Assembly: GCA_041665325.1 (NCBI GenBank)
Contig: JBAYJB010000004.1
Coordinates: forward strand, 1,048 to 65,047
Length of the DNA: 64,000 bases
Origin: Minisyncoccota bacterium
GTDB lineage: Bacteria > Patescibacteriota > Minisyncoccia > Phycocordibacterales > PALSA-1337
Direction: 5' to 3'
Made by a program: the position numbers and the translations under genes. Position 1 is the stretch's first letter. Each line of letters opens with the position of its first letter. A model generated the notes under the pieces. It searched no databases. It was not told the origin of the DNA and worked only from the letters and a program-made list of their open reading frames with translations. Positions 5,791-61,791 of this stretch are shown one piece after another.

Positions 5791-5970
5791 AGATAAGTTT
5801 CACCGCAATTGTGCGACCCCTCACCCGCGAAACATTCGCGAAACCGTGAGAAAGCGCATCTTGCGGTGAAAATGTATGTCAGAGAACGATGTTTTGGCTG
5901 TCATATTCATAACATAATGTAAGTTGACTGTCAATGTGCGGTCAGTATTCATTCTTGATACAATTTAGTC

Positions 5971-13592: not shown

Positions 13593-14051
13593 TCACGCGA
13601 GCTTCTCAAATGCCTCCAAGATTGGCATCTGATATGGATAGATCTTTTGCTTGGCTTGTTCGATTGTAAAATATTCCCCACGGTCCACCTCAGGAATAGT
13701 CATCCTCTTGCCGGAATGTGGCGGCCAGTCGATCTCACAAGTGTTGCTGACCAGATTGGCCGGGTCAAAATCTCCCTGGAATGCCCAGGCATGAACAATT
13801 TTATTTGGATATTTGGCAGAACCAAGTGGAAAAAAAGGTTCTGTAGATTTGAAATTTGTTTCTTCCTCAAACTCCCTGACCGCCGTAACAAGTAAACCTT
13901 CCCCGTCATGAGTTTCCCCTTTCGGTATGCTCCAATAACCAAAATCTTTATTCTTCCAGAATGGGCCGCCGGGATGCACAAGGAATACCTCCCGTTTACT
14001 ATCGCGGATACGGTACATGAGCAATCCTGCGGCGATCTTAGGGGGTATCAT
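13593..14051 (-). CDS. NUDIX hydrolase
   Basis: Nudix box GETHDGEGLLVTAVREFEEETN. Confidence 0.85.
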   Translation of the reverse strand: MIPPKIAAGLLMYRIRDSKREVFLVHPGGPFWKNKDFGYWSIPKGETHDGEGLLVTAVREFEEETNFKSTEPFFPLGSAKYPNKIVHAWAFQGDFDPANLVSNTCEIDWPPHSGKRMTIPEVDRGEYFTIEQAKQKIYPYQMPILEAFEKLA

Positions 14052-14692
14052 TATTTGTAGAGATTCTTAATATCTTTGACAAGCTCTGGGAATTTTTCCT
14101 GTCGGAAATGACCGCGGTCTTTGAAGATCTTAATCTGTGCCTTAGGTAAAAACGTCACGTATTTTTTGAAGTCAGCAAATTTTACCAGTGGATCATCCTT
14201 GCTGTGATATAGGTGTAAACGATCTCCCAAATCATTCAACTTCGTAAGTTTCTTTGGCAGAATGAAATCAGCCATCTTCTCTTTATTTGTATTGCAAAAC
14301 GGCGCAGCAATCAAAAATATGCCTGCAGACTTTTTGGTATCCTTATTCTCCGAAAAATACTTCGCCAAAAAGATGCCCCCCAACGAGTGGCCGACGAAGA
14401 CCGCACCCTTATCAACGAAGCGAAGCAGCCTTTCGAACCAGATCTTCCATTCACTGTACTTTCCATTCCAACGTTTGCCCGGCATCTCCGGATAGAATAG
14501 CTCAAAATCAGAGCCAAGATCGATGCCTAGATTTTCTTTCCACTTATTTTTATCTTCCGATTTGAAATCCTCTCGATCAACCGGGCATTTTTTCAGGTCA
14601 GATATGTATTCCTGATACGTATCATATGCATTGCCTCCATGAATCAAAATGACTTGTTTCCTCATGGGTCGTATTATACACAAAATAAACAC
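14051..14692 (-). CDS. Alpha/beta-fold serine hydrolase (YdeN/RBBP9-like esterase)
   Basis: Nucleophile-elbow motif VFVGHSLGG, about 200 aa. Confidence 0.7.
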   Translation of the reverse strand: MFILCIIRPMRKQVILIHGGNAYDTYQEYISDLKKCPVDREDFKSEDKNKWKENLGIDLGSDFELFYPEMPGKRWNGKYSEWKIWFERLLRFVDKGAVFVGHSLGGIFLAKYFSENKDTKKSAGIFLIAAPFCNTNKEKMADFILPKKLTKLNDLGDRLHLYHSKDDPLVKFADFKKYVTFLPKAQIKIFKDRGHFRQEKFPELVKDIKNLYK

Positions 14693-23153: not shown

Positions 23154-23567
23154 TTATTTGCTAGTCAGTTTAGAAACAACCGATGTTAGATTGCCCACCC
23201 TACCAATCAAACTTTCCACTTTTCCAGTAAGGAAAACTACTCTGGTTATGATGCTCTCAGTTTTTTCATTGATATCTTCGATTCTATTATAGTCCTTGTA
23301 TGTCTTAACAGAGCCATGCTCATTGGTGATCACATACTCCAAGGTTTTAACATCCCCGTTCATCTGCCTCAAGATACGCAGAATAGCGTTATGGAACTTC
23401 TTTTGGAGCCATTCCTGAGTAAATGAATTAGGAACACCGATGTAAACAATGCCATCTTCCTGACGCAGGATTGAAGTATCTTTGAACCACGTGGAAAAAT
23501 TGGCTTGTGAGACGGCACTCTCAATCTCTAGCAGGGCTGTTTCCCACATTTTTGCTGTATCAATCAT
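23154..23567 (-). CDS. Standalone DnaA N-terminal (domain I)-like protein, 137 aa, with no AAA+ or DNA-binding domains
   Basis: MWETALLEIESAVSQANFSTWFKDTSILRQEDGIVYIGVPNSFTQEWLQKKFHNAILRILRQ follows the DnaA domain-I pattern (W..L..L...F..W......L..VPN.F...W....Y). The C-terminal 55 aa are unrelated to DnaA. Low GC. Confidence 0.6.
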   Translation of the reverse strand: MIDTAKMWETALLEIESAVSQANFSTWFKDTSILRQEDGIVYIGVPNSFTQEWLQKKFHNAILRILRQMNGDVKTLEYVITNEHGSVKTYKDYNRIEDINEKTESIITRVVFLTGKVESLIGRVGNLTSVVSKLTSK

Positions 23568-23964
23568 GAGGTGTGGAGTTATCTCTTAATAGCTCTTTCT
23601 TAAAATCATCCATGTATTTAGTGAAGTAGTCCTGATCTAGCTTTCTGTCTAGTTTCTTATCTAGTTCTTTTCCAAACGCGATAAAACTATTGTTTACGTA
23701 CTTTTCCATCGCCTCAAAACCTTCACTAACACGAACGTCCAATTGATCGAAGCGCACTTCTAGATCATTAAAACGTCCGAAAATAAAAGTGAAATTCTGA
23801 TGAACATTCTTGAAACACTCATCAACGGTCTTAAAATTAGCATCGATAGTCTCAAACCACCCATCCGCGGTTTGAAAGCTTTGTTCTATGCGAGACTCAA
23901 ACCCTTGAAACTCTTTCTTAGTAACTGGACTGGGATACAGTGGAGATATAGTCATAGTACTCAT
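23560..23964 (-). CDS. Hypothetical protein (134 aa), helical/repetitive, overlapping the DnaA_N-like gene by 8 nt (co-transcribed)
   Basis: The ORF overlaps the downstream gene, has low GC, and contains periodic F/L/V repeats. Confidence 0.5.
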   Translation of the reverse strand: MSTMTISPLYPSPVTKKEFQGFESRIEQSFQTADGWFETIDANFKTVDECFKNVHQNFTFIFGRFNDLEVRFDQLDVRVSEGFEAMEKYVNNSFIAFGKELDKKLDRKLDQDYFTKYMDDFKKELLRDNSTPHD

Positions 23965-24121
23965 CAGTAAAATGATTAAAGATTATTAAATTCACACTCA
24001 CTCCACAGAGATGCGGGACTTCTAAACGTATGTCCCGCCAATTAAGATTTATTGTTAGAGCCATTTTACCAAACAGAAGAAGCAAGCTGCAAGCTCACAA
24101 GCATTAAAATTCGTGTCTTAA

Positions 24122-24808
24122 TTATTTCCTGCCCTTCAACTTCCACTCATCTATCTTTTTGTGGTCTCCTGTTAAGAGGATTTTTGGCACTTTGTATTTT
24201 TTTCCTTTGTATTCGATGACTTCCGGGCGAGTGTAGACATCTGAGCTGGATATGCGATTTTCCTCAACTGATGAGTCGTGCCCGAGAACCCCTGGAATCC
24301 TACGGGTAATAGCATCTATGACGATCATGGCCGGCAGTTCCCCACCAGTTACGACGTAGGGCCCGGTAGAAATATCAACCATTGGGAATACTTTTTTAAT
24401 CCTGACATCAATACCCTCATAGCGGCCGCAAACCAGAACAATGTCCGTGAATTTCTTGAATGAATCGGCGGTAATATTTGAGAACTCCTTACCAGCCGGA
24501 CTAAAGAACACGATCTGAACTTTCTTTTTGGATTTAGCTGATTTTAATTTGGCGCCAACGGCTTTCTCAATAGCCTTAATCACTGGAACAGCCTCAATGA
24601 CCATTCCGGGCCCTCCGCCATATGGACGATTATCAACTCGGCGGTCAGCATATGATGGAGACTTCCCTTTCTTGACCGTCACGAAATCACGCGGATTATA
24701 GTACTTAACCGCTATATGCTTCTCCTTTTGCGCACGACCGAGAATAGAAGCGCCAAGATATGACTCTAGGGATTCTGGGAAAAGCGTGATGATATGGAAG
24801 GTGATCAC
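24122..24808 (-). CDS. trmD: tRNA (guanine37-N1)-methyltransferase TrmD
   Basis: SPOUT-fold TrmD with conserved blocks, located in the rpsP-KH-trmD cluster. Confidence 0.92.
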   Translation of the reverse strand: MITFHIITLFPESLESYLGASILGRAQKEKHIAVKYYNPRDFVTVKKGKSPSYADRRVDNRPYGGGPGMVIEAVPVIKAIEKAVGAKLKSAKSKKKVQIVFFSPAGKEFSNITADSFKKFTDIVLVCGRYEGIDVRIKKVFPMVDISTGPYVVTGGELPAMIVIDAITRRIPGVLGHDSSVEENRISSSDVYTRPEVIEYKGKKYKVPKILLTGDHKKIDEWKLKGRK

Positions 24809-34214: not shown

Positions 34215-34658
34215 ATGAAAATCAGACTAAGACCCGCCACCGCGGATGATGTCGGAGCCTATGTCCGCATCGCCCGGGGCGTAGCTTCGCCCATCAACCT
34301 GACCATCATTGATCCGGCAGAGGTCCTCGCCGAGATCAACAGCGCCTGCGTATTTATGATCAAGCGCGACACTGAGATCGTCGGATATATCTCTTACGAG
34401 GAGAGGTCCTCTACCCACACCTATATCTCCGAGCTTGCCATCCATCCAGATTTCCAGGGCAGTGGCATGGGGAGCCAAGCACTCGGCACACTGCTCATGG
34501 ATCTTGGTCGGGCCGGTTACAACCACATCGAACTCGTCACTCACCCGGACAATCCTGCCAAACGGCTTTACGAGCGACATGGCTTCACGGTGACAGGGCG
34601 GATCGAGGATTACGAAGGCAGCCACACTCCCCGGCTCGTCTTGAGCCGCCGTATCTAA
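34215..34658 (+). CDS. GNAT family N-acetyltransferase
   Basis: Acetyl-CoA-binding motif ELAIHPDFQGSGMGSQAL. Confidence 0.85.
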   Translation: MKIRLRPATADDVGAYVRIARGVASPINLTIIDPAEVLAEINSACVFMIKRDTEIVGYISYEERSSTHTYISELAIHPDFQGSGMGSQALGTLLMDLGRAGYNHIELVTHPDNPAKRLYERHGFTVTGRIEDYEGSHTPRLVLSRRI

Positions 34659-34725
34659 GACCGAGAGCCTGAATGTCGCCTCGCATGCATCGCAACCGCC
34701 TGAAACATGGCGGTTTTTTGTTGTC

Positions 34726-34965
34726 TTATCTCAGAATATTGACGATTGCTATCAACGCCACCACGAACCACACGATATTGAGCACGCCCGGCTGGTAGTC
34801 TTTCTTGTGGAATGAAACTGTGACGATTCCTAGAGCACCGGTAAGATTGAGAATTTGATAAGAAACAGAGTCTGATGTTACGACTGAAAAACTGACCAAT
34901 GCATATGCAAGCATGATTGCGCATGTCCCATACCAACCAAAGATTTCGATGAGTTTAGTTTTCAT
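34726..34965 (-). CDS. Small membrane protein (about 79 aa, 2 TM)
   Basis: Hydrophobic ORF with its start overlapping the stop of the upstream NUDIX gene. Confidence 0.45.
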   Translation of the reverse strand: MKTKLIEIFGWYGTCAIMLAYALVSFSVVTSDSVSYQILNLTGALGIVTVSFHKKDYQPGVLNIVWFVVALIAIVNILR

Positions 34966-35411
34966 TATTTTTTCCCTATCTCCAAATACTCCTTCACTCC
35001 CTTGAGCCACCCACCCTTGAAATAATCCTCCGGCTTGAATGTATTCATGTCGGCCCACAACTCCTCGACATGCTGTGCTGACATCTTAGGTGAGCCTGAT
35101 ATGAGCGTAGCCTGATATCCGACGGCAAATATGCGCGTGAGATTGCCCCCGGCTGCGTCTATCCGCTCATGACGCATGAAGACGATGGGCTTGCCGAGCT
35201 CATACACAAGCCCGTCGCCGATCTCCTCTTTCATCTTCCTTCTGATGATCTCTTCGAGGGGCGCGTCGAATTCATGTTTCTTGATCCGACCGCCAGGAAT
35301 ATCCCAGTCGCCGAAGCGATCCTTAAAGACATAGAACTTCCCATCTTTTTCCAAGAAGACCTTGACTGCTACGAAGTACGTGTCTTTCTGTTTTGAGTCT
35401 AGGTCAGGCAT
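34965..35411 (-). CDS. NUDIX hydrolase
   Basis: Nudix box GGRIKKHEFDAPLEEIIRRKMKEEIG. Confidence 0.85.
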   Translation of the reverse strand: MPDLDSKQKDTYFVAVKVFLEKDGKFYVFKDRFGDWDIPGGRIKKHEFDAPLEEIIRRKMKEEIGDGLVYELGKPIVFMRHERIDAAGGNLTRIFAVGYQATLISGSPKMSAQHVEELWADMNTFKPEDYFKGGWLKGVKEYLEIGKK

Positions 35412-35414
35412 AAG

Positions 35415-35771
35415 TTACATTCCGATGTTGGGATTACTTCTAAACTGGCTTTTGAACTGTTGATCTTGTACGGCTCTTTCTGCTTTTGTGTACTCATTAA
35501 TATCAACACCGAAGCTCACTCTACTCACAGTAGAATTTTTTAACTCAGCAGACCCAGTTGCCCCCAGTTGACCAATGCCCCAAACTTTAATTTCTCCGCC
35601 TCCCTTTCCTGAATTAGTTGATTCAACGGTAACCGCAACATCAAATTCAAGGGCTGTTCTTTGTTCCTTAACCCCCTTAAATCTGACATCCCTTCCCGTT
35701 TCTTTGTTTGCCTCAGAAACGGCCTGATCAAGGTCGATTATTACTTTTTTCACAAAATCCTTTAGTTCCAT
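35415..35771 (-). CDS. Small hypothetical protein whose pattern resembles a Trypco2-like, conflict-system-associated domain (118 aa)
   Basis: ALEFDVAVTVESTNSGKGGGEIKVWGIGQLGATGSAEL...VSFGV pattern; low GC; family assignment by memory only. Confidence 0.45.
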   Translation of the reverse strand: MELKDFVKKVIIDLDQAVSEANKETGRDVRFKGVKEQRTALEFDVAVTVESTNSGKGGGEIKVWGIGQLGATGSAELKNSTVSRVSFGVDINEYTKAERAVQDQQFKSQFRSNPNIGM

Positions 35772-48090: not shown

Positions 48091-50382
48091 TTATAGCCTT
48101 CTTGCCTTGATCCTGAGCGAGTTAGAGACCACCGATACGCTCGAGAGCGCCATGGCCATGCCGGCAAAGACGGGGCTCAAAAGCCAGCCGAATATAGGGT
48201 AGAAGATCCCGGCAGCCAGCGGGATGCCGACGATGTTGTAGATGAAGGCCCAGAAGAGGTTCTGCTTGATGCCGCGCATGGTCATCTTGGAAAGTTTGAT
48301 GGCCTTGACGAGCTTCGAGATATCTCCGCCGAGAAGCGTGATGCCGGCCGATTCGATAGCCACATCCGTGCCAGTTCCCATGGCGATGCCGACATCGGCT
48401 TGAGCCAGAGCGGGAGCGTCGTTCACTCCGTCTCCGGCCATAGCCACGACCCTACCCTGTGATTGGAGTTCCTTGATCTTCTCGAGCTTGTTCTGGGGCA
48501 ACACATGCGCGACCACGTCATCTATACCGACAAGCGACGCCATGTATCGGGCCGCCTTCTCATCATCGCCAGTGAGCATCACCACCTTGATACCGAGCTT
48601 GTGGAGGTCGGCCACGGCTTGCTTCGATGCCACCTTGATCTCGTCGGCCACCATGACAAATCCAAGCACCTTCTCCCTAGTCGAAAGGATGACTGGCGTT
48701 TTACCCTGAGCGGTGAACTTTTCTATCGTCGCGACATCGAATGCAACACCGAGATCATTCATGAGCTTCGCATTGCCAACATGGTATTCGGCGCATCCGA
48801 TCGTTCCCTTCAATCCCTTGCCTTGTATGGCTTCGAAGCCAGAAACATCTTCGATCTTGATGCCCTTCCCTTCAGCATAGCTCACAACAGCATGTGCGAT
48901 GGGGTGCTCCGACTTCTTCTCCAGAGAGGCCAGAATAGATACAAGGACATCTTCTGCAAGCCCGGAAAGGTTCCGGATATCTACCAGAGTCGGCTTGCCG
49001 ATAGTGATAGTGCCGGTCTTGTCTACGACCACGGTATCCACCTTGTGGAGCTTCTCGAGCGTGGCGGCATCCTTGATCAGGATGCCTTCCTTGGCCCCCT
49101 TGCCTACCCCCACGATGATCGCCGTCGGCGTAGCCAAACCGAGGGCGCAGGGGCAAGCGATGACCAGGATGCCTACAAACGAGACGAGCCCAAGCGACAA
49201 GGCTTGCGATAGACCGAGCGCGCTCGTGCCGATGATAAGCCAGGACCCAAGAGTCAGGAAGGCGATGACGAGCACGATCGGCACAAAGACGCCCGAGATC
49301 TTGTCTGCCAAGGCCTGGATCGGCGCCTTACTGCCCTGGGCATCTTCGACCATCTTGATGATCTGGGCGAGAAGCGTCTCCGATCCGACCTTGGTCGCCT
49401 TAAATATAAATGACCCACTGGTGTTGATGGTACCGGCGACCACACTGTCTCCAACTTTCTTCTTAGCCGGCATCGGTTCGCCGGTAACCATGGATTCGTC
49501 GACAAATGACGCGCCGTCTACGATCACCCCGTCGACGGGGATCTTTGCCCCCGGCTTGACGATGATGTGATCGCCGTGCCGCACATCACCAACCGAGATC
49601 TCCATCTCCTTACCGTCGCGGACGACTAGGGCGGTCTTGGCCTGAAGATTGAGCAGTTTCTCGATGGCATCGCCGGTCTTCACCTTGGAGCGGGCCTCGA
49701 GATATTTGCCGAGCGCGATGAAAGTGATGACGACGATGGTAACGTCATAATAAGTCTGATCGACATTGATGAAGGGTTTGAGGACATCTTCAAATGCGGT
49801 CACGGCAAAGCTATAGAGATAGGCGGCTACTGTGCCGATGCCGATGAGCGTGTCCATATTGGCCTTGCCATAGCGGAGAAATCGATAGAAACCAAGCAGG
49901 TACGGCTTGCCTACGACGAACAGCGTATATGTAGCCAAGAGGGGCAAGAGATGGTGGAAAAACTCCCCCACTGTATAACTCATCTCTGGCACTGATCCGT
50001 ATCCCGCCAGGATATCCCAACCCATCACGAAGATGCTAAGTATGGCCAATGGGATCGCCGATATGACTTTGGCTTTCATGGCCTTGATCTCGGCGAGCTT
50101 CTCTTTCTTGGACTGACCGATGCCCGTGTGGGCGGCATGCTCATCGGGCGACATGCCCATGCCTTCGGCCGTCTCGGTGACGAGCGAGTAACCGAACTTC
50201 GCGATCTTCTGCGAGAGCTGCTGCGGAGTGACCTTCTCTGGGTCGAGAGCTAGCTTCGCCGTCTCGGTACCATAGTTCACTTCGGCAGATTGGACGCCGG
50301 CTGTCTTCTTGAATGTCTTTTCGATGATGCCGGCGCAGGAAGCGCAATGCATGCCCCTCACCTTGTATGTTTGCTTGTGCAT
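48091..50382 (-). CDS. copA: Copper-translocating P1B-type ATPase
   Basis: N-terminal HMA domain [12 protein letters not shown] motif, DKTGT motif, 763 aa. Confidence 0.95.
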
Positions 50383-50385
50383 GGT

Positions 50386-50697
50386 TTATTTCCTTTTGAG
50401 CTTATAGACGCGGAGGATCTCCCCGACGGCCTTGGCGGTCTGTCCCTTGGCGACTTGCTTGGTGACACAACCGCTCAAGTGGTTCTCGAGCAGAAGATCT
50501 TCGATATTGGACAATCCCTGTTTCACAGCTGATGTCTGGGTTATGACATCGATGCAGTAAGTATCCTTCTCGATCATCCTCCCAAGGCCACGGACCTGGC
50601 CCTCGAGGAGCTTGAGGCGACGGATGACCTTGTGCTTGTTGCTATCTTTCATGTATTTCATGCCAGAAAGTATATACCCCCCTAGGGGTATCGTCAA
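50386..50697 (-). CDS. csoR: CsoR/RcnR-family metal-sensing transcriptional repressor
   Basis: RLKLLEGQVRGLGRMIEKDTYCIDVITQTSAV...HLSGC (W-x-Y-z motif with Cys and His ligands). Confidence 0.8.
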   Translation of the reverse strand: MTIPLGGYILSGMKYMKDSNKHKVIRRLKLLEGQVRGLGRMIEKDTYCIDVITQTSAVKQGLSNIEDLLLENHLSGCVTKQVAKGQTAKAVGEILRVYKLKRK

Positions 50698-51530
50698 TGG
50701 TATATACTGAAACAGTGAAACGCCTATACCTCCTATCCATGGTCATGGTGCCATTGCTACAGATCACGCCGGCCAATATATACCAGGGCGAGCCGGTCAT
50801 GGTCACTGTCCAGGGCACGACCTCGGTCCCTGTGAAGAGCGTACCTCCCTTATTGTTCTTCATGTATCAGGGCAGACCCACAGCTCTCTATGGGAACGAT
50901 ATAAACAAAACACCGGGCACAACTACGGTCGTCGCCACATTCCGGGACGGCTCGCGGGCATCCGGGTCATACCTCGTTCTGCCCCGATTGCGGCCACAGG
51001 AATCCATGCCCGTCCCAGTCGCGATCGGCGGTAATAGCCCGGCCAATCAGACACGGATCCTTTCCATTCTGGCCAAGGAGAATGCCGAGCTCGCCGCGGT
51101 CTATTCCCGCAAAGACAAAGCTCTTTGGACCAGCGCCTTCGCCTATCCGGTCGCCGACCCATTTGTGACCGATCCATACGGCTATGACCGCGACAGCGGC
51201 CTCAGTGTAATCACTCACAAGGGTTCCGACTTCCGCGCCGCGACTGGCACCCCGATCCACGCCGTCAATCGCGGCGTAGTCAGGGTGGCGAAGACCTTCG
51301 TGATGTACGGCAACACCGCCATCGTCTACCACGACCTCGGCCTCCTCTCGATGTATATGCATCTCTCGAAGCTCGCCGTCGTGCCCGGACAGCTGGTCGA
51401 GAAGGGTCAGCTCGTGGGCCTCTCCGGCATGACCGGCTACGCCGAAGGCCCGCATCTGCATCTTACTGTGCGCGTGGGCGGCATATCGATCGACCCCATG
51501 AAATTCTTCGCTTTGTTCGGAGTGAGATAA
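50697..51530 (+). CDS. M23 family metallopeptidase (LytM-like)
   Basis: HKGSDF...GTPIHAV...GPHLHLTV: HxxxD and HxH motifs. Confidence 0.85.
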   Translation: MVYTETVKRLYLLSMVMVPLLQITPANIYQGEPVMVTVQGTTSVPVKSVPPLLFFMYQGRPTALYGNDINKTPGTTTVVATFRDGSRASGSYLVLPRLRPQESMPVPVAIGGNSPANQTRILSILAKENAELAAVYSRKDKALWTSAFAYPVADPFVTDPYGYDRDSGLSVITHKGSDFRAATGTPIHAVNRGVVRVAKTFVMYGNTAIVYHDLGLLSMYMHLSKLAVVPGQLVEKGQLVGLSGMTGYAEGPHLHLTVRVGGISIDPMKFFALFGVR

Positions 51531-51546
51531 GAGCGAGTATCGATAT

Positions 51547-51834
51547 ATGAAAGCGCCCAGAATGATCGACATCAAAGTCCCACCTGACCTGCGCAAGGCT
51601 CTCGCGGCTGCCCCGCAGGCCCGGAACACGTGGACGGACATCACACCGATCGCGCGCCGGGACTGGATCCTCTGGATCATCACGGCCAAACTAGCGGAGA
51701 CACGCAAGCGCCGGATCGAGAAAGCCTGCAACATGCTCTCCCGCGGCAAGCGCCGAGCATGCTGCTTCGGCGGCATAAACTGGCTTATGAAGACGGGCCA
51801 GTTGCCTGTTCGTAGTAGTCGCAAGGGCTCTTAA
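51547..51834 (+). CDS. YdeI/OmpD-associated family protein
   Basis: WTDITPIARRDWILWIITAKLAETRKRRIEKACNML matches the YdeI/OmdA pattern. Confidence 0.6.
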   Translation: MKAPRMIDIKVPPDLRKALAAAPQARNTWTDITPIARRDWILWIITAKLAETRKRRIEKACNMLSRGKRRACCFGGINWLMKTGQLPVRSSRKGS

Positions 51835-51882
51835 ACTTTTCCAATCTTGATTTTGTTAGCCGTTTGGAAAGAAGCTGGAAAC

Positions 51883-52344
51883 TTACTTCCAAATCTCCCA
51901 AATCATCATAAGCACCACAAACCATAAAACCAAAATCGCATATGCAGGAAATTGTGAAGTGAATCTGTCGAAGAAATCTGATTCATGCTTCTCACCTCTA
52001 ATTCTCCCAGACAACAGGTACCAAATCGATTGCTTCAAATTAAGGGAAACATCTTTATTGACATTATTTAATGCATTTAGTTCTTTCATTGCTTTTGTAT
52101 TCAATCCGATAGTTTCTGAATAATAGATCTGAAGAGACAGTATCATCAGAAGCAGTAAAATTGTTGCCAAATACTTTATTGTAATCGTAACAGAAAATAA
52201 ATCACCCGCACTTCCTAATGCAAGCAAGGCGATCATTAGACCAGACAATATGGGAAGTATTGCAAACTTGTCTCTTGTTGATTGAACAGATAGGTCTAAG
52301 AGATACTCTTTAAATTTTTGTTTATTATAATTTTCTTGTGACAT
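51883..52344 (-). CDS. Hypothetical membrane protein, low GC
   Basis: Two or three TM helices and about 33% GC. Confidence 0.45.
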   Translation of the reverse strand: MSQENYNKQKFKEYLLDLSVQSTRDKFAILPILSGLMIALLALGSAGDLFSVTITIKYLATILLLLMILSLQIYYSETIGLNTKAMKELNALNNVNKDVSLNLKQSIWYLLSGRIRGEKHESDFFDRFTSQFPAYAILVLWFVVLMMIWEIWK

Positions 52345-52392
52345 CTGGACTGTTTTATTTGCTGGCAGTTTGGTTCGATGTTGGAACTAACT

Positions 52393-53535
52393 TCACTGAT
52401 AAATCTCAGGGATCTTCAGTCCAGTAAAATGATCTGTGAGTAGTTTGCCTGTTAGCATCCCGTTAGTAAGTCCGTTTCCTGAATGACCAAATATTTCATA
52501 ATATCCATTATTATTTTGAATATGTGGGTGATAATCGCTTGTAGAAACCATGAGCCCACTCCATCGATGGGAAATTCTAAGACCCTCTTTCTTGAGCGTT
52601 GGGAAGAATGAGAGTAGTTTTGTAATCTGCCAATTTTCGTTATCAATCAACTCTTCTTTGGTTGGATTTATCGGAAGATTCTTACACGCAAATAGCCGGA
52701 TACCTATTTTTCTACAAGAGATGTATTCCTCGCCAGTCGTCCACAACATGCCTCCGATTTGCCAATCGATCTCATCCCATTTTTCTTTTGATAGTGGCTC
52801 AGTTACTACGGCTTGTGAGCGTACTATCTTCACTCCTTGTCCCATATTAGAATTAGCACTTTCGATTGCTACAACAACTCTCTTTGAGCTGATCACCCCT
52901 TCTAAAGTAATGACTTTGTGGGCATCGAAATCAAGAGCGGGAGTATGTTCGTATATTCTTAATCCCGATCGTTCGGCCACCTCAGCAAGCCCTCTGATGA
53001 ATTTTACCGGGTGAAGCAAAAGATCCGACGGGTTGAACAAGGCTGTGCTAAATGGACTTCTCTCTAACTGCCTCCCGTTCTCTATCATTTCGCATACAAA
53101 GCCGGACTCCGTTCTCTTTTCTGCCTCCATACGCAATTGTCTGTCATCACTATCGCTACGGCTCACATACAAGCTTCCTGGATTTTCTAGATCGCAATCA
53201 ATCTTATTATCTTTTATGACCGACTCCACTAGCTTCCTCGCTTCTATAGTATGCTCCCACAAATCTTTCGCTATCTTTAAACCAAACTCCTCTATCGCTT
53301 CATTGAAATCCAACTCCATCCCCTCAACTACCATTCCACCATTCCTTCCGGCTGAACCAAAAGCGATGGTATCTTTTTCAATCAAAATGGTTTTAAACCC
53401 TGCTTTGACACAATGATAAGCAGTAGAAACACCAGTGATTCCTCCTCCGATAACAACCACGTCCGCATCTGCATCCTCCTTAAGAGCGGTACGAGAGGTG
53501 TATGGCATGTCTAACCAATAGGGTAAATCTTTCAT
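52393..53535 (-). CDS. FAD-dependent oxidoreductase (DAO/glycine oxidase-like)
   Basis: N-terminal dinucleotide-binding motif VVVIGGGITG; low GC. Confidence 0.8.
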   Translation of the reverse strand: MKDLPYWLDMPYTSRTALKEDADADVVVIGGGITGVSTAYHCVKAGFKTILIEKDTIAFGSAGRNGGMVVEGMELDFNEAIEEFGLKIAKDLWEHTIEARKLVESVIKDNKIDCDLENPGSLYVSRSDSDDRQLRMEAEKRTESGFVCEMIENGRQLERSPFSTALFNPSDLLLHPVKFIRGLAEVAERSGLRIYEHTPALDFDAHKVITLEGVISSKRVVVAIESANSNMGQGVKIVRSQAVVTEPLSKEKWDEIDWQIGGMLWTTGEEYISCRKIGIRLFACKNLPINPTKEELIDNENWQITKLLSFFPTLKKEGLRISHRWSGLMVSTSDYHPHIQNNNGYYEIFGHSGNGLTNGMLTGKLLTDHFTGLKIPEIYQ

Positions 53536-53589
53536 ACAATTATTATACTCTGATTTACTGACGTGTGGGACGAAGTCGGAACTTCAATG

Positions 53590-54483
53590 TCATTCTCTCA
53601 ACAAAATCACTCCGAGTACCAAAATTGCAAAAAATAGGATCTTTTTAAGAAGATGTCCTTTGTGTAGATCTTCTTTGAATAATGATGGGAAGAAACCTCG
53701 ACCTAACCAAGCAAAGATAAGCAGGTAGAAAGGCGAGATCATAGTTATTCCCTTAACCACGCTAACCGAGGTCAGTGAGATTGCGTATGCTTCGGCTGCT
53801 AAACCAAAGAAGGTGAGCATCTCTTCTAGTAAAAACAGAGGCGATAGTCTTATGAATGTCGGCAGTGATGCCTTTATATCATGCCGTACGCGAGGAAAAG
53901 CCAGTAGTGATAAAGCTAAGACCAGGGCAATGACCGCCTCGCCGCCTATCGCAGTGCTAACCGATACCCCCTTATCAAATAGCAGCTTGAATAACACTCC
54001 TTCAAACGCAAGAATGAATGCCGCAAGCCCTATGTGCCACATGGCTTTGCTGAACCTGAACTTGGCTTTAGTGTGATGCAACCCAAGCGCTATCACGCTC
54101 GTAACGATCAGAGCGATTCCGATATACTGGACCAGATCAAGCCTCTCTCCGACGATAAGAAAAGCCAGTACTGGAATAAATAGCCTGCCTATAGCGAAAA
54201 ACGAAATTGCTATAGAGGTATCATCAGATTGTAACCCTTTGTAGTATGGATAGAGATACCCAATACTGATGAAGCCTAGAATGACAAAGATGGGCAACGT
54301 ATGAAGGGGTGGGATTTGCGGTGGATCAAATAAGAAAAGAACGGGTATGAAAATAAGATTGAAAAGAGAGGTATAAAATACCAACGTAAGAAGCTTCTTG
54401 AATTTTTTGTTCGCTAGAAAGTTGTCAAAAACTTCTGCGATCGAGTACAAGGCCGGTGCCAGAAAAGCAAAGAATAGCCACAT
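53590..54483 (-). CDS. Polytopic membrane protein, probably a DMT/EamA-like transporter
   Basis: About 10 TM helices and internal duplication; low GC. Confidence 0.5.
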   Translation of the reverse strand: MWLFFAFLAPALYSIAEVFDNFLANKKFKKLLTLVFYTSLFNLIFIPVLFLFDPPQIPPLHTLPIFVILGFISIGYLYPYYKGLQSDDTSIAISFFAIGRLFIPVLAFLIVGERLDLVQYIGIALIVTSVIALGLHHTKAKFRFSKAMWHIGLAAFILAFEGVLFKLLFDKGVSVSTAIGGEAVIALVLALSLLAFPRVRHDIKASLPTFIRLSPLFLLEEMLTFFGLAAEAYAISLTSVSVVKGITMISPFYLLIFAWLGRGFFPSLFKEDLHKGHLLKKILFFAILVLGVILLRE

Positions 54484-54503
54484 GTGCGAATTATATCACA
54501 GGT

Positions 54504-54845
54504 CTAATTAACCAAGAGTGATATCAAATAATCCTTGATTACAAAAACCAATATTACAAAACATGCTGTACCCAGTAGTGACATTTTTGAATAATTGTCT
54601 TCATGTGTCTTGCCTCTCGATAGAAGAAAGGTCAGTTCATCTATAAACAACCCTAACCCGATTGCGCATAAAATAATCGAGTTAAAAAGATATCCGATTA
54701 TTAATATGATGAGACCATACACATAATGATGAACCCTGAATCCAAAAATAGTAGGGCCCGGTGTCGGACAAACAAAAAGAAAAATACGCGCTATGAGAAT
54801 AGTCGCGAGAAAAATTGTAAAAAACATCTGGCTAGTTTCTAACAT
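54504..54845 (-). CDS. Small membrane protein (start trimmed to avoid the tRNA-Gln)
   Basis: Hydrophobic ORF; the N-terminal part of the track ORF is the antisense of the tRNA and the repeats. Confidence 0.4.
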   Translation of the reverse strand: MLETSQMFFTIFLATILIARIFLFVCPTPGPTIFGFRVHHYVYGLIILIIGYLFNSIILCAIGLGLFIDELTFLLSRGKTHEDNYSKMSLLGTACFVILVFVIKDYLISLLVN

Positions 54846-54851
54846 GATTTG

Positions 54852-54922
54852 CTGCGGGACTTGGACTCGAACCAAGATAACGACCTCCAGAGGGTCGCGT
54901 CCTACCATTAGACGATCCCGCA
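54852..54922 (-). tRNA. tRNA-Gln (anticodon CUG)
   Basis: Folded by hand: U1-A72 acceptor pair (typical of bacterial tRNA-Gln), D-arm GTCT/AATGGTA/GGAC, anticodon loop CUCUGGA, T-arm CTTGG/TTCGAGT/CCAAG; CCA is not encoded. Confidence 0.8.
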
Positions 54923-55004
54923 AAGTTAAACAACGGACCCTCGGACCATTCATGATCCCGCAAAGTTAAACAACGGACCCTCGGACCATTCATGATCCCG
55001 CAAG
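54914..55004 (-). repeat. 2.3 tandem copies of a 40-nt unit (GATCCCGCAAAGTTAAACAACGGACCCTCGGACCATTCAT); each unit is a deletion derivative of the tRNA-Gln 5' half, and the first copy overlaps the tRNA 5' end
   Basis: Perfect 40-nt tandem identity, with unit alignment to the tRNA acceptor, D and anticodon arms. Confidence 0.85.
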
Positions 55005-55044
55005 TACCATACAAAATACGCTAAAAAGACCGAATATTCAAGGG

Positions 55045-55326
55045 TTAGCCAAAGAGCTTGGAATGACTACCAATGCGCCATAAGATGACACTCGCAGTCG
55101 ACTGATCTATCCTATATATCACAAGTAGATCGAAACTCAGGTGATATTCGCGATATTCAGACATGTCACCTCCCAGAGCATGGTCTTGATAGATATCATC
55201 GAGCCTCACACCCATAGCCAAAGTTCTAATAGTATATGCAAACTTCCCACGGTCAAAAAAACCGGACTTAGCGAGTTTCCGGAATTCTTTTTTGAACCTT
55301 CTGCTGTATATGACCGCGTATATCAA
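55045..55326 (-). CDS. yafQ: Type II toxin, YafQ/RelE family mRNA interferase
   Basis: HALGGDMSEYREYHLSFDLLVIYRID...WRIGSHSKLF matches the YafQ pattern (H.L.G...Y.E.H...D.LLIY...R.GTH..LF). Confidence 0.75.
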   Translation of the reverse strand: MIYAVIYSRRFKKEFRKLAKSGFFDRGKFAYTIRTLAMGVRLDDIYQDHALGGDMSEYREYHLSFDLLVIYRIDQSTASVILWRIGSHSKLFG

Positions 55327-55599
55327 CTAGGACATCATATCATCCATCATTTCTTCGACGCTAGAGAATCTCTTGCTAAGCTTTTCAGTTCTTACTTGAC
55401 GTAAGAACTTCTGCTCTTGCGCTACAGTATAACCATTTACAGTCAATCCCTTGATAGGTAGAGACTTGCTCCTTACCACCTGTGTGAGAAAAACCTTGAT
55501 CGCCGACGAGAGGTCCATACCCAGCTCCTTCAAGATCTTCTGGGCCTTGGCCTTGGTGGATGCGTCGATGCGCAGTTGTAGTGTGGTATCCATGCTCAT
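55327..55599 (-). CDS. dinJ: Type II antitoxin, DinJ/RelB family
   Basis: LQLRIDASTKAKAQKILKELGMDLSSAIKVFLTQVVRSKSLPI: ribbon-helix-helix N-terminus typical of DinJ. Confidence 0.75.
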   Translation of the reverse strand: MSMDTTLQLRIDASTKAKAQKILKELGMDLSSAIKVFLTQVVRSKSLPIKGLTVNGYTVAQEQKFLRQVRTEKLSKRFSSVEEMMDDMMS

Positions 55600-55605
55600 G
55601 GCTCC

Positions 55606-55633
55606 AGTATAGACGATGTACGTACATTGTCAA
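55606..55633 (-). promoter_or_regulatory. Consensus promoter TTGACA-N16-TATACT with the 12-nt palindrome ATGTACGTACAT in the spacer (putative TA operator). The ATG lies 6 nt after the -10 box.
   Basis: Reverse strand TTGACAatgtacgtacatcgtcTATACTggagccATG. Confidence 0.6.
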
Positions 55634-55645
55634 TACACGCCAGAT

Positions 55646-57454
55646 CTAGGCAAACAACTCTTTCTTGATCGAGATCTTCTTTGAACCGGGTTTCGCGGCT
55701 TCTTTGGCATCCGGCTCTGCATGCCTCTTGGATTGGTTGTCCTTGTTCCGCACCTTGGCCGCCTTCATGAAGGCCGTAAATAAGGGGTGCGGCATGAGTG
55801 GGCGAGCGAGGAGTTCGGGATGGAACTGGGTACCGAGGAAGAATGGGTGCTTGGAACGCGGTAGCTCGGCGATCTCCATGAGCACGCCATCGGGCGACTT
55901 GCCCGAGAAGACCAGACCTCCCTTCTCCAGGCGCTCGACATACTTGGGATTGACCTCGTAGCGGTGGCGATGACGTTCCTTGATGAGCGTGGTCGGCCGC
56001 TTGAGCCTCTCTCCATCGAAGATCGAGTAGGCATCCTGCGCGATTGAGCCCTTGGCGAGCTTGGCCGGGTAGAGGCCGAGACGCATCGAACCGCCGTACT
56101 TGCCTTCGGCAATGAGCTTCTTCTGGTCCGGCATGATGTCGATGACTGGATGTGGCGACTTTGGGTCGATCTCGGCGGTATGAGCGCCCTGGAGGTGCAG
56201 GACATGCCTGGCATACTCGATAGTCATGAGCTGCATGCCATAGCACAGTCCGAAGTACGGGATGTTGTGCTTCCTAGCATATCCGATGACATTGAGCTTG
56301 CCCTCTATACCGCTCTCACCGAAGCCCCCCGGTACGATGATGCCGTCCAGATCGTCGAGTGACGCATAGTCTGGGTCCTTACTCTCAAAATCGCGAGAAT
56401 TGATGCTGTGGATGACCGCCTTGACCCCATTGGCATAAGCCGAGAATTTGATGGCCTCAAGGACCGAGATATAGGAATCGGAGAGGATGAAGTCCCCGGT
56501 ATTGAAATATTTACCTACTACACCGATCGAAACTTCGTGGCGGGTGTGATTCTTGACGCCGCGAGCCATCTTCTTCCAGTCCAGGAAGAACTTGTTGGTC
56601 TTGCGGTCAGAAATATTCAGGAGCTCTAGGATGATCTCGCCCAAGCGATCATGCTCGAAGTTGACCGGCACGTCATATATACTCTCGATGTCCGGCGCCG
56701 AGACTACCCGCTTCGGCAGGATATTGCAGGCGGCGGCGATCTTCTCCTTGCGCTTCTGGTCGAGCGGGATCTCCGAACGGCCGATGATGATATCGGTATT
56801 GACGCCGTACGAGGCCAGTTGGTTGACGGCATTCTGGGTCGGACGCGTCTTCATCTCCCCCAACTTCGAGGGGATAGGCAGGTACGAGACCATCACGAAG
56901 GCCACATCGTGCGGGTGGCGGATCTTGAGAGTGCGGGCGGCCTCGATGAACATGATGTTCTGGTAGTCGCCGATGGTGCCGCCGATCTCGATGATGGAGA
57001 TATCGGACTTGTTGACTTTGACGGCATGCTCGAACCGGCCGATGATCTCGTCGCGGATATGCGGGATGGCTTCGACACACTTACCGCCATAGCCGAGCGC
57101 ACGCTCGCGCTCGATGACATGCTTATAGACCATACCGCTTGTGACATAGTCTGCATCGGTCAGGTCGCGACCGAGGAAACGCTCATAGTTACCCATGTCC
57201 TGGTCGGTCTCTAGACCGGAATTGAGCACGAATACTTCACCATGCTCGGTCGGATTCATGGTGCCGGCGTCTACATTCAAATACGGGTCGACTTTGACCA
57301 GGTTGACGCGGAAACCCTTGGCCGAGAGGAGCGTGCCGATCGAGGAGGTGGCTACGCCCTTCCCCACGCCCGACATCACGCCGCCGAGGACGAAAATATA
57401 CTTATGGTGAGTTTTACCCTTGGATATCCGCGACTTTCTGGCCGGGCGTTTCAT
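55646..57454 (-). CDS. pyrG: CTP synthase
   Basis: N-terminal synthetase domain (YIFVLGGVMSGVGKG), a C-terminal GATase with the catalytic Cys (GLCYGMQ), and TACAAT 6 nt upstream of the internal ATG chosen as start. Confidence 0.93.
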   Translation of the reverse strand: MKRPARKSRISKGKTHHKYIFVLGGVMSGVGKGVATSSIGTLLSAKGFRVNLVKVDPYLNVDAGTMNPTEHGEVFVLNSGLETDQDMGNYERFLGRDLTDADYVTSGMVYKHVIERERALGYGGKCVEAIPHIRDEIIGRFEHAVKVNKSDISIIEIGGTIGDYQNIMFIEAARTLKIRHPHDVAFVMVSYLPIPSKLGEMKTRPTQNAVNQLASYGVNTDIIIGRSEIPLDQKRKEKIAAACNILPKRVVSAPDIESIYDVPVNFEHDRLGEIILELLNISDRKTNKFFLDWKKMARGVKNHTRHEVSIGVVGKYFNTGDFILSDSYISVLEAIKFSAYANGVKAVIHSINSRDFESKDPDYASLDDLDGIIVPGGFGESGIEGKLNVIGYARKHNIPYFGLCYGMQLMTIEYARHVLHLQGAHTAEIDPKSPHPVIDIMPDQKKLIAEGKYGGSMRLGLYPAKLAKGSIAQDAYSIFDGERLKRPTTLIKERHRHRYEVNPKYVERLEKGGLVFSGKSPDGVLMEIAELPRSKHPFFLGTQFHPELLARPLMPHPLFTAFMKAAKVRNKDNQSKRHAEPDAKEAAKPGSKKISIKKELFA

Positions 57455-57532
57455 GCCTCTATTGTAATCAAGCCCCAAGCCTCTTGTCTACTTGGACAAG
57501 TATCCTGATATGTGTCACTAGGAAAAATAAGT

Positions 57533-60587: not shown

Positions 60588-60662
60588 CCGCGGGGTAGGG
60601 TAACGGTAACCCGTCAGGCTCATAACCTGAAAATTGGCGGTTCGATTCCGCCCCCCGCAACC
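60588..60662 (+). tRNA. tRNA-Met (anticodon CAU) with a C1xA72 mismatch (initiator-like); CCA encoded
   Basis: Folded by hand: acceptor CGCGGGG/CCCCGCA with an unpaired C1/A72, anticodon loop CTCATAA, T-loop TTCGATT. Confidence 0.7.
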
Positions 60663-60663
60663 A

Positions 60664-61791
60664 TTATTTAATGTCCGTGAAAGAGCCGTTTGCCAAGACT
60701 TCTCTCCAAGTTAATCCGGTGTTTATATTCTGACAAGATGAGTCAAATTTTATCTCGCCCGTAATCCCTTGGTATGCGGGCATCTTTACGAGCGCCTTGG
60801 CGATTTTCTGTGGGTCTCCTCCCTCTTCCTGAATAGCCGCCACAAGTATGTTGAGACTATCGTAAGTCAATGCCCCAAGTAATATTGGTACAGCATTATA
60901 TTTGGTCTGGTAAGATTGCGCATACCTCATCGCATTTGGATTACGATTTAACGCAACTTGAGGAGTATAGATATAATCTACAAATCTTGTCCCATTAGCC
61001 ACAGTGCGATCTTTCATATTGGGGCTAGTAATAGTCCAGATGTCGCTCAAAATAGGTTTATCCCAACCGAGTTCCGCCAACTGTTTGAACATTGGTTCGG
61101 GCGTTATGTTGTTTATCACAACTAAGGCATCAACGTCTTTCTCGTATTGAAGGAGTTTCAGAACGTTTGACCTTAAATCTCCTGATGTCTGATCATACAA
61201 TTCGACTTTAACAATCTTACCCGTGAACGAACTAACAATAGCATCCCTCATTACTGTCCCATATTCATTATTGGGCACAAATATAGCCAACTTATTATAA
61301 GACAGTTCACTGGCATATGCAGATACGCTCGGCCCGAGGATATCTGCAGTCAAGCCAACCCTACAGGTAAGAGGACTGGTATCCGTAAAGACTGGTGTGG
61401 TGGCTGACTGAGCGAAAATCATGATTCCATCCTGAACAGCCTTCTCTCTGATTGCAGCAACAACAGGACTTCCATCGGCTATAATGATCCTTGCACCTTT
61501 CAACTTAAGAGACTCATAACCGCTCAATGAGGTCTTGGGGTCATATTTAGAATCTTCGTATACGAGTTGGTACATACTTGTATCAATACCCGCAGATCGG
61601 AGATCCTCCAGCGCCATAGAGATAGCGTTCTTTTGAACCTCCCCGGCAACAGCAATTGGCCCTGATAATGGAGTAAGTACTCCGATCTTTACCCCTTCCC
61701 TATCAGACAGATTCGATTGTTTATTAACACTTATAATAATGACCGCGAGAGCAATAACAATCAATACGGTAATCGAAATGTTTCTTTTCAT
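60664..61791 (-). CDS. Periplasmic substrate-binding protein, type I PBP (Leu/Ile/Val-binding, LivJ-like), with no ABC permease or ATPase genes adjacent
   Basis: Signal/TM segment and GVLTPLSGPIAVAGEVQKNAISMALEDL, a pattern I read as typical of LivJ-type binding proteins. Confidence 0.75.
   Translation of the reverse strand: MKRNISITVLIVIALAVIIISVNKQSNLSDREGVKIGVLTPLSGPIAVAGEVQKNAISMALEDLRSAGIDTSMYQLVYEDSKYDPKTSLSGYESLKLKGARIIIADGSPVVAAIREKAVQDGIMIFAQSATTPVFTDTSPLTCRVGLTADILGPSVSAYASELSYNKLAIFVPNNEYGTVMRDAIVSSFTGKIVKVELYDQTSGDLRSNVLKLLQYEKDVDALVVINNITPEPMFKQLAELGWDKPILSDIWTITSPNMKDRTVANGTRFVDYIYTPQVALNRNPNAMRYAQSYQTKYNAVPILLGALTYDSLNILVAAIQEEGGDPQKIAKALVKMPAYQGITGEIKFDSSCQNINTGLTWREVLANGSFTDIK

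Follow-up and report, generated by a model that had tools for sequence, protein, structure and literature searches.

The low-GC segment between ydeI and pyrG in the 64-kb stretch of Minisyncoccota DNA analysed here (contig JBAYJB010000004.1, called the window below) probably consists of two independent insertions that flank a native tRNA-Gln(CUG) gene, a serial cassette array on the 3' side and a dinJ-yafQ toxin-antitoxin (TA) module on the 5' side. Patescibacteria, the Candidate Phyla Radiation (CPR), have tiny genomes and live mostly as epibionts; few mobile elements are recognised in them and their gene exchange is largely obscure. The array holds three co-oriented cassettes, the first with a small membrane protein (mem113) and an EamA transporter, the second with a DAO-family FAD oxidoreductase and the third with a 153-aa membrane protein (mem153), and a motif of about 33 nt with the consensus AGTTCCAACnTCGTCCCACACnGCCAGC is located 0–3 nt past the stop codon of each cassette. 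The relatives used for comparison are 80 species-level loci of Paceibacteria, and the best species-level relative has 77% identity in PyrG. By PyrG and the genes around it, the window belongs in Patescibacteria, with MAGs of the Paceibacteria/Parcubacteria type. A 154-kb contig of the European Nucleotide Archive (L083) comes from the same genome as the window and is 99.986% identical over 21 kb. Coordinates are found in Table 1.

Composition of the segment and comparison with relatives

In sliding 400-nt windows the GC content is 0.335–0.472 from position 51,800 to about 55,400 and 0.52–0.61 in both flanks, and the drop described in the original prediction for this DNA is thus real. The GC content at third codon positions (GC3) is 0.34 in mem153, 0.40 in DAO, 0.46 in EamA, 0.39 in mem113, 0.46 in yafQ and 0.60 in dinJ, so that five of the six islet genes fall within 0.34–0.46, to be compared with 0.65–0.77 in the core genes. 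The islet constitutes the longest low-GC3 run of the window, which has five smaller patches besides. None of the four cargo genes is found at the syntenic locus in any of the 80 relatives, and the conserved gene order that the prediction had named as a sign of vertical inheritance is not seen. Foreign composition and absence from the relatives bear out its claim that the DNA 3' of tRNA-Gln was horizontally acquired and integrated at the tRNA. The sequence also contains every gene that it listed, as well as tRNA-Gln(CUG), the tandem repeat of 40 nt and the palindrome at dinJ-yafQ.

The cassette-terminal motif

The first cargo open reading frame (ORF) begins 5 nt past the 3' end of tRNA-Gln. The spacers that follow EamA, DAO and mem153, together with three spacers of L173, another contig (103 kb) of the metagenome that yielded the window genome, are mutually similar with p ≤ 0.003 for nearly every pair. 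A profile was built from these six copies, three from the window (M1–M3) and three from L173, followed by one iteration. It recognises copies on which it was not trained in the closest relative (L004, E = 8e-6, the top score of all), in L026 (E = 3e-5) and as a series in L064; after the iteration six copies are found in L064, one in L040, and weak ones on L166, the contig bearing the closest DAO homolog. In loci that carry tRNA-Gln, all 12 copies with E < 0.01 are on the tRNA strand, 0.8–4.7 kb to its 3' side, and the copies of L173 lie beside a 3' fragment of tRNA-Gln. The profile scan gave no copy in the rest of the window, nor in 80 loci of other phyla.

The motif begins 0–4 nt past the stop codon of most Pfam-supported cargo ORFs, and 30 nt after tRNA_bind in L173; the genes that precede it include GNAT, a CPT-like kinase, an SRPBCC protein, purD and tRNA_bind. 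The terminal copies face convergent native genes, ydeI in the window and ComEC in L173, and the motif therefore marks the ends of cassettes and not promoters. Six spacers were folded without yielding a consistent structure, five of them having z-scores of -0.8 to +1.2 with nothing in common, and an attC-like or terminator structure was rejected. A specific derivation of the motif from tRNA-Gln was also rejected, as the 3' ends of other tRNAs score alike and the likeness is that of a generic T-loop.

After M1 a TATAAT/TATGAT box is located 6–7 nt before the ATG of the next ORF (window 53536–53553; L173 10932–10968), and in both the window and L173 these boxes are too close to the ATG for a ribosome-binding site to fit in. 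Judging from these spacers, the cassettes may have promoters of their own and be expressed from leaderless mRNAs.

Signature of a probable integration at the tRNA terminus

The bases that follow ...CAG in the motif agree with the tRNA-Gln flank of the same genome at 3.93 of 7 positions, against 2.17 of 7 for the flanks of other genomes (label-permutation p = 0.002). The motif is composed of a conserved arm followed by the host tRNA terminus and flank, and therefore has the structure expected of an attR site after integration at the 3' end of a tRNA; from this we infer that it is an attR-type scar of serial site-specific integration. In L040 a 19-nt exact repeat, CAGCCACCACGAGCTAGCT, is present at the tRNA end and in the motif, with further similarity beyond it, and a third, more tRNA-like copy is located at +5.9 kb.

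The prediction had proposed a search for a degenerate repeat of the tRNA-Gln 3' end at 51.8–52.0 kb, the distal edge of the islet. M3 lies there as a member of the motif family and carries ...GCTAACAAAATCAAG where tRNA-Gln has ...GCAGCAAATCATG, a likeness that is significant within the motif family and by the co-variation with the own flank, and not when the copy is taken alone. A search of 51.6–54.85 kb for direct repeats of the tRNA-Gln 3' half, its last 25 nt or its 5' half gave nothing above shuffled sequences; this test was later superseded by the analysis of the motif family.

Two of the cassettes are found in other genomic contexts. The first is present in L173, where EamA is 96% identical (aa) and the nucleotide identity is 87–91% through mem113 and EamA. 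The homology starts at GGTTCGA, position 50 of tRNA-Gln (window 54873), inside the T-arm. At the L173 locus an intact tRNA is missing and only its 23-nt 3' fragment is present, right behind the stop codon of a superoxide dismutase gene, so that the last 23 nt of tRNA-Gln (54851–54873) form the proximal junction, corresponding to the attL side, and travel with the cassette. There it is located between the superoxide dismutase gene and ComEC in a low-GC islet of its own, with GC3 of 0.33–0.44 against 0.67–0.73 in the flanks. In L324/L325 a tRNA-Gln 3' end is directly followed by a homolog of mem153, with purC/E and purN downstream, and the homology of the window to L324 ends at 51876, inside M3. 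As read from these alignments, the third cassette is independent support for the proposed integration at the tRNA-Gln 3' end.

Two contigs of the window's strain, L001 and L002, end at the identical window coordinate 51736, and L324 and L325 begin inside tRNA-Gln, so that independent assemblies break at the edges of the array. Such breaks fit with what strain-level heterogeneity at the junctions would give; the shared end would place a graph branch at about 51876 if both assemblies used k = 141, which is suggestive only, k being known for L001 alone. The metagenome contig L001 is 100% identical to window 51736–56647, and its nt 1–800 (corresponding to window 56648–57497) show 18 mismatches over 127 nt in the 5' end of pyrG, with an unrelated gene in place of ftsX. 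This is either a recombination breakpoint between diverged lineages that have an identical islet or a chimeric contig.

Proposed course of insertion

The cassettes would have been inserted one by one at the extreme 3' terminus of tRNA-Gln by site-specific recombination, filling the region from 54,850 to 51,853. Each integration would keep the tRNA intact and leave a scar of about 33 nt of the attR type at the distal end of the cassette, made up of the element arm GTTCCAACnTCGTCCCACACnGC, which mimics the T-loop and acceptor strand of a tRNA, joined at ...CAG(C) to the host sequence that follows the tRNA. Newer cassettes would displace the older ones away from the tRNA, and the recombinase, absent from the window, would have acted in trans or been lost. 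In an empty site the 3' end of tRNA-Gln would join directly to ...AAAATCAAGATTGG and ydeI. The dinJ-yafQ genes would have been inserted separately, between pyrG and the tRNA promoter.

Cargo of the cassettes

The EamA protein is a member of a Paceibacteria-wide family of 297-aa DMT transporters. It differs from the L173 copy by 79 synonymous and 13 non-synonymous codons and is therefore under purifying selection. The DAO protein belongs to a small, CPR-restricted subfamily with 38 homologs at 43–65% identity, not counting an identical copy that belongs to the same genome as the window; Nomurabacteria is the label of at least one member. It scores far below every NCBIfam equivalog cutoff; the proteins of solved structure that match it best are sarcosine and glycine oxidases at about 1e-11, with 3.5e-11 for the best PDB match. 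A scan of metagenomes with the subfamily alignment gave only DAO proteins of other phyla with 22–35% identity. Elsewhere, homologs are found beside a large serine recombinase (LSR) gene (L172), beside a HigBA-type TA pair (L170) and in a low-GC patch beside tRNA-Ser genes (L168), contexts that fit a mobile accessory gene. On the metagenome contig L085 a 55%-identical homolog is located about 2 kb 3' of that contig's own tRNA-Gln. A conserved EamA-DAO pair was considered and rejected, as the EamA of the window is not orthologous to that beside the L084 DAO or to those in the spacers of the relatives. Neither membrane protein ORF has a Pfam match. By annotation the cargo appears to be ordinary accessory metabolism and transport from a low-GC gene pool of Paceibacteria, with a DMT transporter and an amine- or amino-acid-type FAD oxidoreductase.

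The native anchor

The tRNA cluster-prfB-ftsE-ftsX-pyrG block is conserved in most of the 80 relatives, and synteny breaks right after pyrG, the last gene of the block. A tRNA-Gln(CUG) gene is found downstream of pyrG on the same strand in 43 of the 80, after a spacer of 84–6773 nt, and its sequence is nearly identical across the clade. Similarity among the relatives ends at the last base of this tRNA. Upstream of it the window and seven relatives have a promoter block, CTTGAAT-N13-TAGCGTATTTT, with 15 invariant columns. Because of this synteny, the invariant promoter and the abrupt end of similarity, the tRNA-Gln gene and its promoter are ancestral and not parts of an island.

In L028 the M23 peptidase gene directly abuts pyrG, and in L022 the genes pyrG-HD-M23-tRNA-Gln are contiguous; the genes that flank the islet are therefore neighbours elsewhere without it. 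The spacer between pyrG and the tRNA in the relatives is of variable length and contains ordinary genes, among them those for HD-domain proteins, MetK, rhodanese and ABC transporters, and no TA or recombinase gene was found there among ORFs of at least 90 aa, a limit that shorter TA genes would escape.

The TA module and the 40-nt repeat

The dinJ-yafQ genes lie between pyrG and the native tRNA promoter and, by homology, constitute an intact type II TA module with the antitoxin gene first and both genes full length. The toxin aligns to PDB entries 4nrn, 2otr and 4ml2 with E-values down to 6e-13, and the positions KDH...H...D...GSH..LF are conserved; compared with 4nrn, kDH..., the H in '..reyHl', the D in 'fDll' and 'GSHs.lF' are all kept. 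These include the positions that we take to be the catalytic His/Asp/His, assigned from E. coli YafQ. As in DinJ-YafQ systems the antitoxin gene precedes and abuts the toxin gene, a palindrome overlaps a σ70-like promoter, and the toxin aligns to solved YafQ-family structures. The YafQ of E. coli is however more distant from it than is the YafQ of the Helicobacter HP0892/HP0894 type, and with 67 bits the toxin does not reach the NCBIfam YafQ subfamily cutoff of 87 bits. The TA side has no copy of the motif and no repeat in common with the 3' side, and the module is therefore treated as a putative separate insertion.

Between the promoter and the tRNA lies a 40-nt tandem repeat in 2.2 copies at 100% identity, each unit consisting of 31 nt and the first 9 nt of tRNA-Gln (TGCGGGATC). 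These copies had been read as degenerate tRNA 5' halves, a description that does not hold, as only the 9 nt are shared, the remaining 31 nt have no likeness to the body of the tRNA (p = 0.91) and Rfam sees no tRNA in the copies. When the duplication is left out the distance from promoter to tRNA is about 29 nt, as compared to 28–31 nt in the relatives. The identity of the unit with the native leader of the relatives is not significant (p ≥ 0.19) and was dropped, so that only this spacing argument stays. In L083 two bases differ just upstream of the repeat array, where the sequence resembles an older, partly deleted copy. We regard the repeat as the product of recent slippage, by which the tRNA leader and 9 nt of the tRNA were duplicated, and it is without demonstrated link to either insertion.

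In L034 an 18-nt copy of the tRNA-Gln 5' end (12853–12870) is located 74 nt upstream of the tRNA, and in L065 a 13-nt copy (14482–14494) 137 nt upstream; 5'-end fragments before tRNA-Gln therefore recur in the clade, as in the 40-nt repeat of the window.

The tRNA-Gln 3' side as a hotspot

Within 3.5 kb on the 3' side of tRNA-Gln the relatives have 124 ORFs that fall into 97 Pfam families, and the commonest families are the three LSR domains, found in seven genomes. These LSR genes are always antiparallel to tRNA-Gln and immediately 3' of it, in several cases 6–145 nt away. Low-GC cargo follows the LSR in L012, where it is a DNA methylase and a ResIII helicase of restriction-modification type, and in L060 two similarly sized ORFs without annotation follow; no replication genes were identified with the LSRs of the relatives. 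The motif is present in none of the seven LSR-bearing loci and no motif-bearing locus has an LSR, and because the two sets do not overlap the LSRs probably serve another kind of element than the cassettes.

In nine relatives the 3' end of tRNA-Gln recurs as a direct repeat further downstream, with a spacing of 24 nt to 5.9 kb. Inserts of about 130–175 nt lie between tRNA-Gln and a 13–19-nt repeat of its 3' end in L013, L031, L038, L071, L079 and L324 (nt 46–189), and some hold an inverted copy of the tRNA acceptor or T-arm that could pair with the tRNA 3' end. These could be miniature elements or scars left after loss of cargo. In L034 the 3' half of tRNA-Gln is perfectly duplicated over 44 nt (13039–13082), only 24 nt downstream of the tRNA.

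Table 1. Features of the tRNA-Gln locus in the window, and LSR genes 3' of tRNA-Gln in relatives (locus given before the coordinates)
Feature	Coordinates	Strand	Basis and remarks
M23 peptidase	50697-51530	+	Pfam
ydeI/OmdA, native flank, convergent with the array	51547-51834	+	Pfam; GC about 0.60
Motif copy M3, putative distal array boundary	51853-51885	-	Spacer comparison, profile; L324 homology stops at 51876
Cassette 3: 153-aa membrane protein (51883-52344)	51886-52357	-	Orphan family of 5 proteins
Motif copy M2	52358-52390	-	Spacer comparison, profile
Cassette 2: DAO-family FAD oxidoreductase (52393-53535)	52391-53553	-	Pfam DAO 7e-55
Motif copy M1, putative cassette-terminal att-type scar	53554-53586	-	Spacer comparison, profile
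Cassette 1: small membrane protein (54504-54845) and 297-aa EamA/DMT transporter (53590-54483)	53587-54850	-	Pfam EamA
tRNA-Gln(CUG), native anchor	54851-54922	-	ARAGORN; Rfam tRNA 58.9 bits
40-nt tandem repeat, 2.2 copies, tRNA leader	54914-55003	-	Unique in the window
Native tRNA-Gln promoter block	55000-55040	-	15 invariant columns, window and 7 relatives
YafQ/RelE-family toxin gene, abuts dinJ at 55326/55327	55045-55326	-	Pfam YafQ_toxin 6.4e-22, full length
RelB/DinJ-family antitoxin gene	55327-55599	-	Pfam RelB 4.4e-11; NCBIfam RelB_DinJ 71.6 bits (cutoff 45.65)
Promoter-like TTGACA-16-TATACT overlapping a 30-nt palindrome (55607-55636), putative operator	55606-55636	-	Upstream of dinJ
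pyrG (CTP synthase), native flank, last gene of prfB-ftsE-ftsX-pyrG	55646-57478	-	Pfam; GC3 0.75
LSR gene	L005:16625-17923	-	Resolvase+Recombinase+Zn_ribbon
LSR gene	L006:11832-13337	-	Resolvase+Recombinase+Zn_ribbon
LSR gene	L012:13498-14817	-	Resolvase+Recombinase+Zn_ribbon
LSR gene	L039:5879-7432	-	Resolvase+Recombinase+Zn_ribbon
LSR gene	L060:12288-13832	-	Resolvase+Recombinase+Zn_ribbon
LSR gene	L065:14673-16184	-	Resolvase+Recombinase+Zn_ribbon
LSR gene	L072:16705-18045	-	Resolvase+Recombinase+Zn_ribbon

Evaluation of the proposed insertions and of other explanations

Several observations weigh against two insertions with a serial array. Any single motif copy, M3 included, lacks significant similarity to a tRNA 3' end, and the motif overall is no closer to tRNA-Gln than to the 3' ends of other tRNAs because the shared part is the generic T-loop. 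The family amounts to about 20 copies in 6–7 genomes. Window and L173 stay homologous for about 45 nt beyond M1, as far as the first codons of the ORF that follows, a poor fit with a crossover exactly at the motif. An integrase or recombinase of any family was found neither in the 64-kb window nor in the motif-bearing loci, a search with a tyrosine integrase being negative in both. The genome of L085 is low in GC throughout (0.41) and has its DAO homolog on the 3' side of the same tRNA-Gln, and given this contig some vertical persistence of DAO at the locus is possible. Finally, the conservation across 15 copies of the motif shows a 3-nt periodicity (p = 0.03).

With regard to this periodicity, two reading frames fit the motif, LAVWDEVGT on the opposite strand and VPTSSHTAS on the same strand, and in the former all four Ala codons and three Val codons are in use, a hint that the arm goes back to the terminal part of a coding region of the intact element. 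Opposite-strand ORFs of L064 that end in the motif peptide were rejected, there being no Pfam support on either strand. The peptide VWDDVGT is also present in a phage C5 DNA methyltransferase family, which accounts for more than 120 matches of the motif pattern in viral contigs; matches to a 20-nt pattern of the motif belong to one such family. The viral matches (150) are all coding and have no tRNA or array context, and were judged to be coincidence.

Among other explanations the one that survives best, and which we consider unlikely, is homologous or illegitimate recombination with low-GC Paceibacteria, in which tRNA-Gln served as the anchor and the motif is a regulatory or termination element of the donor operon. 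The near-identity of tRNA-Gln across the clade would suit it, as would the presence of DAO 3' of the same tRNA in L085, the homology with L173 that passes M1, the abrupt divergence boundary within pyrG of L001, which is consistent with recombination between lineages, and the lack of a recombinase. However, the motif has no consistent fold and is found only 3' of tRNA-Gln, it ends arrays where no co-oriented gene follows (M3 before ydeI, the third L173 copy before ComEC), and its 3' part co-varies with the host tRNA flank, which is not expected of a donor regulatory element.

The islet might instead be the remnant of an LSR-driven island 3' of tRNA-Gln from which the recombinase gene has been deleted, an explanation to which we give a low probability. 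LSR genes occupy this very position in the seven relatives and supply the top Pfam families of that flank, an LSR with 59% identity to that of L072 lies directly next to a DAO homolog in L172, and the weakness of the att signal would be explained by a serine integrase, as these enzymes do not produce long direct repeats. On the other side, motif and LSR never share a locus, tblastn with four LSRs (E ≤ 1e-4) finds no LSR or remnant of one in the window, the 5 nt between tRNA and first cargo ORF leave no room for such a gene, and the 19-nt direct repeat of L040 is atypical for serine integrases.

The original prediction described a single old, decayed island around the tRNA, with TA module, tRNA-fragment repeats and cargo as its parts. 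The low GC over the whole 3.8 kb, the frequent role of TA modules in stabilising islands and the 5' tRNA fragments upstream of tRNA-Gln in L034 and L065 would agree with it, and the absence of an integrase from the window, which it also noted, was confirmed by Pfam and tblastn. But the native, conserved promoter lies between the TA module on one side and tRNA and cargo on the other, the pyrG-tRNA spacer varies independently in the relatives and holds ordinary genes, the TA side shares neither motif nor repeat with the 3' side, and dinJ has a GC3 of 0.60, near the core value. Decay is contradicted by the intact cargo ORFs, by the purifying selection on EamA and by the order of three intact cassettes with conserved att-type scars. 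The single-island reading is thereby largely refuted and improbable. Vertical inheritance of native genes, whose low GC would come from membrane-protein composition or weak selection, is very improbable, since, even with membrane proteins making up three of the four cargo products and other low-GC3 genes in the window, the soluble DAO has a GC3 of 0.40, no ortholog occurs at the locus in 80 relatives, the same cassettes are found in other contexts and L173 shows an equal GC contrast for the shared module.

Relation to known systems

The tycheposon islands of Prochlorococcus are tRNA-anchored and built by serial integration, and LSRs are used by a minority of the elements, 27 of 937 (Hackl et al., bioRxiv 10.1101/2020.12.28.424599). 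As in those, the locus belongs to a streamlined genome, has a conserved position beside a tRNA where repeated integration would push older modules distally, contains att-type repeats and integrase-less remnants scattered in the island with niche metabolism and transport cargo, and has LSRs in relatives. Tycheposon att repeats are however partial tRNAs, in contrast to the conserved non-tRNA arm fused to tRNA terminus and flank found here, and the present modules have 1–2 genes and 0.5–1.3 kb, lack integration and replication genes in the array and belong to the phylum Patescibacteria. The conserved tRNA-side position, evidence of serial integration and att repeats that define tycheposons are found, and neither the tyrosine recombinase or LSR nor the replication module that active tycheposons carry is present in the window.

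Integrons and clusters of attC sites lacking integron integrases (CALINs) also have co-oriented single-gene cassettes with a recombination-site-like repeat close behind each, and integrase-less arrays of this kind exist. Three such cassettes are present in the window, six repeats in L064 and three in L173, and the cargo of the relatives is typical as well, with a GNAT acetyltransferase, glyoxalase/bleomycin resistance protein, small kinase and unknowns. In contrast to integrons, the repeat is sequence-conserved over about 33 nt with no attC-like imperfect palindrome or stable fold, the anchor is the 3' end of a tRNA and not attI, at least one cassette spacer has its own TATAAT-like box, and intI is lacking. 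Inspection of six spacers gave no RYYYAAC/GTTRRRY pair and no shared structure, and no tyrosine recombinase beside an attI is found in the window or the motif-bearing loci.

Genomic islands in tRNA genes by the Islander definition (PMC4383910) are atypical in composition and bounded by the tRNA gene on one side and by a displaced copy of its 3' end and flank on the other. An intact tRNA at one boundary, atypical composition and absence from relatives are found here too, but no islet ORF has a recombinase domain by Pfam, tyrosine integrase included, the crossover would be at the very 3' terminus so that almost no tRNA sequence is duplicated, and there are three tandem micro-islands instead of one island. 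An LSR gene at the edge, as in LSR islands, is absent from the window and present in the seven relatives. The architecture is closest to tycheposon-type islands and integron cassette arrays and falls outside both, because no integrase, replication module or attC structure is present. Literature searches gave nothing specific on cassette arrays, integrons or serine-recombinase tRNA islands of Patescibacteria.

Other features of the window

The window genome is a mosaic, given further low-GC3 patches. Four of these, with GC3 of 0.34–0.48, are located at 5458–6219, 13593–14692, 23154–24808 and 34655–35771. A low-GC gene at 60664–61791 on the minus strand (GC3 0.42), annotated in L083 as Peripla_BP_6/ANF_receptor, abuts a tRNA-Met (60589–60663) that belongs to the conserved tRNA cluster, and in L013 and L014 the gene beside this tRNA touches it directly. 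The gene may be a second tRNA-adjacent insertion; there is no copy of the cassette motif at it. A csoR-copA copper-resistance pair (48091–50697) adjoins the M23 peptidase gene, and homologs of csoR and copA follow pyrG at 3–7 kb in L034 and L055 and precede it in L046, so that this neighbourhood recurs loosely around the hotspot. Exact-sequence look-ups with the M23 and YdeI proteins gave no record.

Implications

For annotation, the native tRNA, its promoter, ydeI and pyrG can be separated from the acquired part, which comprises three cassettes and one TA module. The locus gives a concrete and testable route of gene gain for one clade, a tRNA-Gln hotspot conserved across Paceibacteria that is used by at least two kinds of element, motif-bounded micro-cassettes and islands that carry LSRs. 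Serine integrases that target tRNA genes have been called unreported or unproven (PMC4383910; PMC7192596), and the pattern of LSRs at the tRNA in the relatives bears on this open question. Tentatively, and short of an even chance in our estimate, Paceibacteria may own an undescribed cassette-capture system, similar to integrons and tycheposons in architecture and distinct in mechanism, with cassettes of 1–2 genes, a conserved arm of about 25 nt, a trans-acting recombinase and the tRNA-Gln 3' terminus as target, whose ordered arrays co-occurring lineages would share and reshuffle. Metagenomes can be searched with the motif for accessory genes of the CPR, as they are with attC for integron cassettes, and if the proposal is true the motif could be the probe by which flexible genes of uncultured Paceibacteria are collected.

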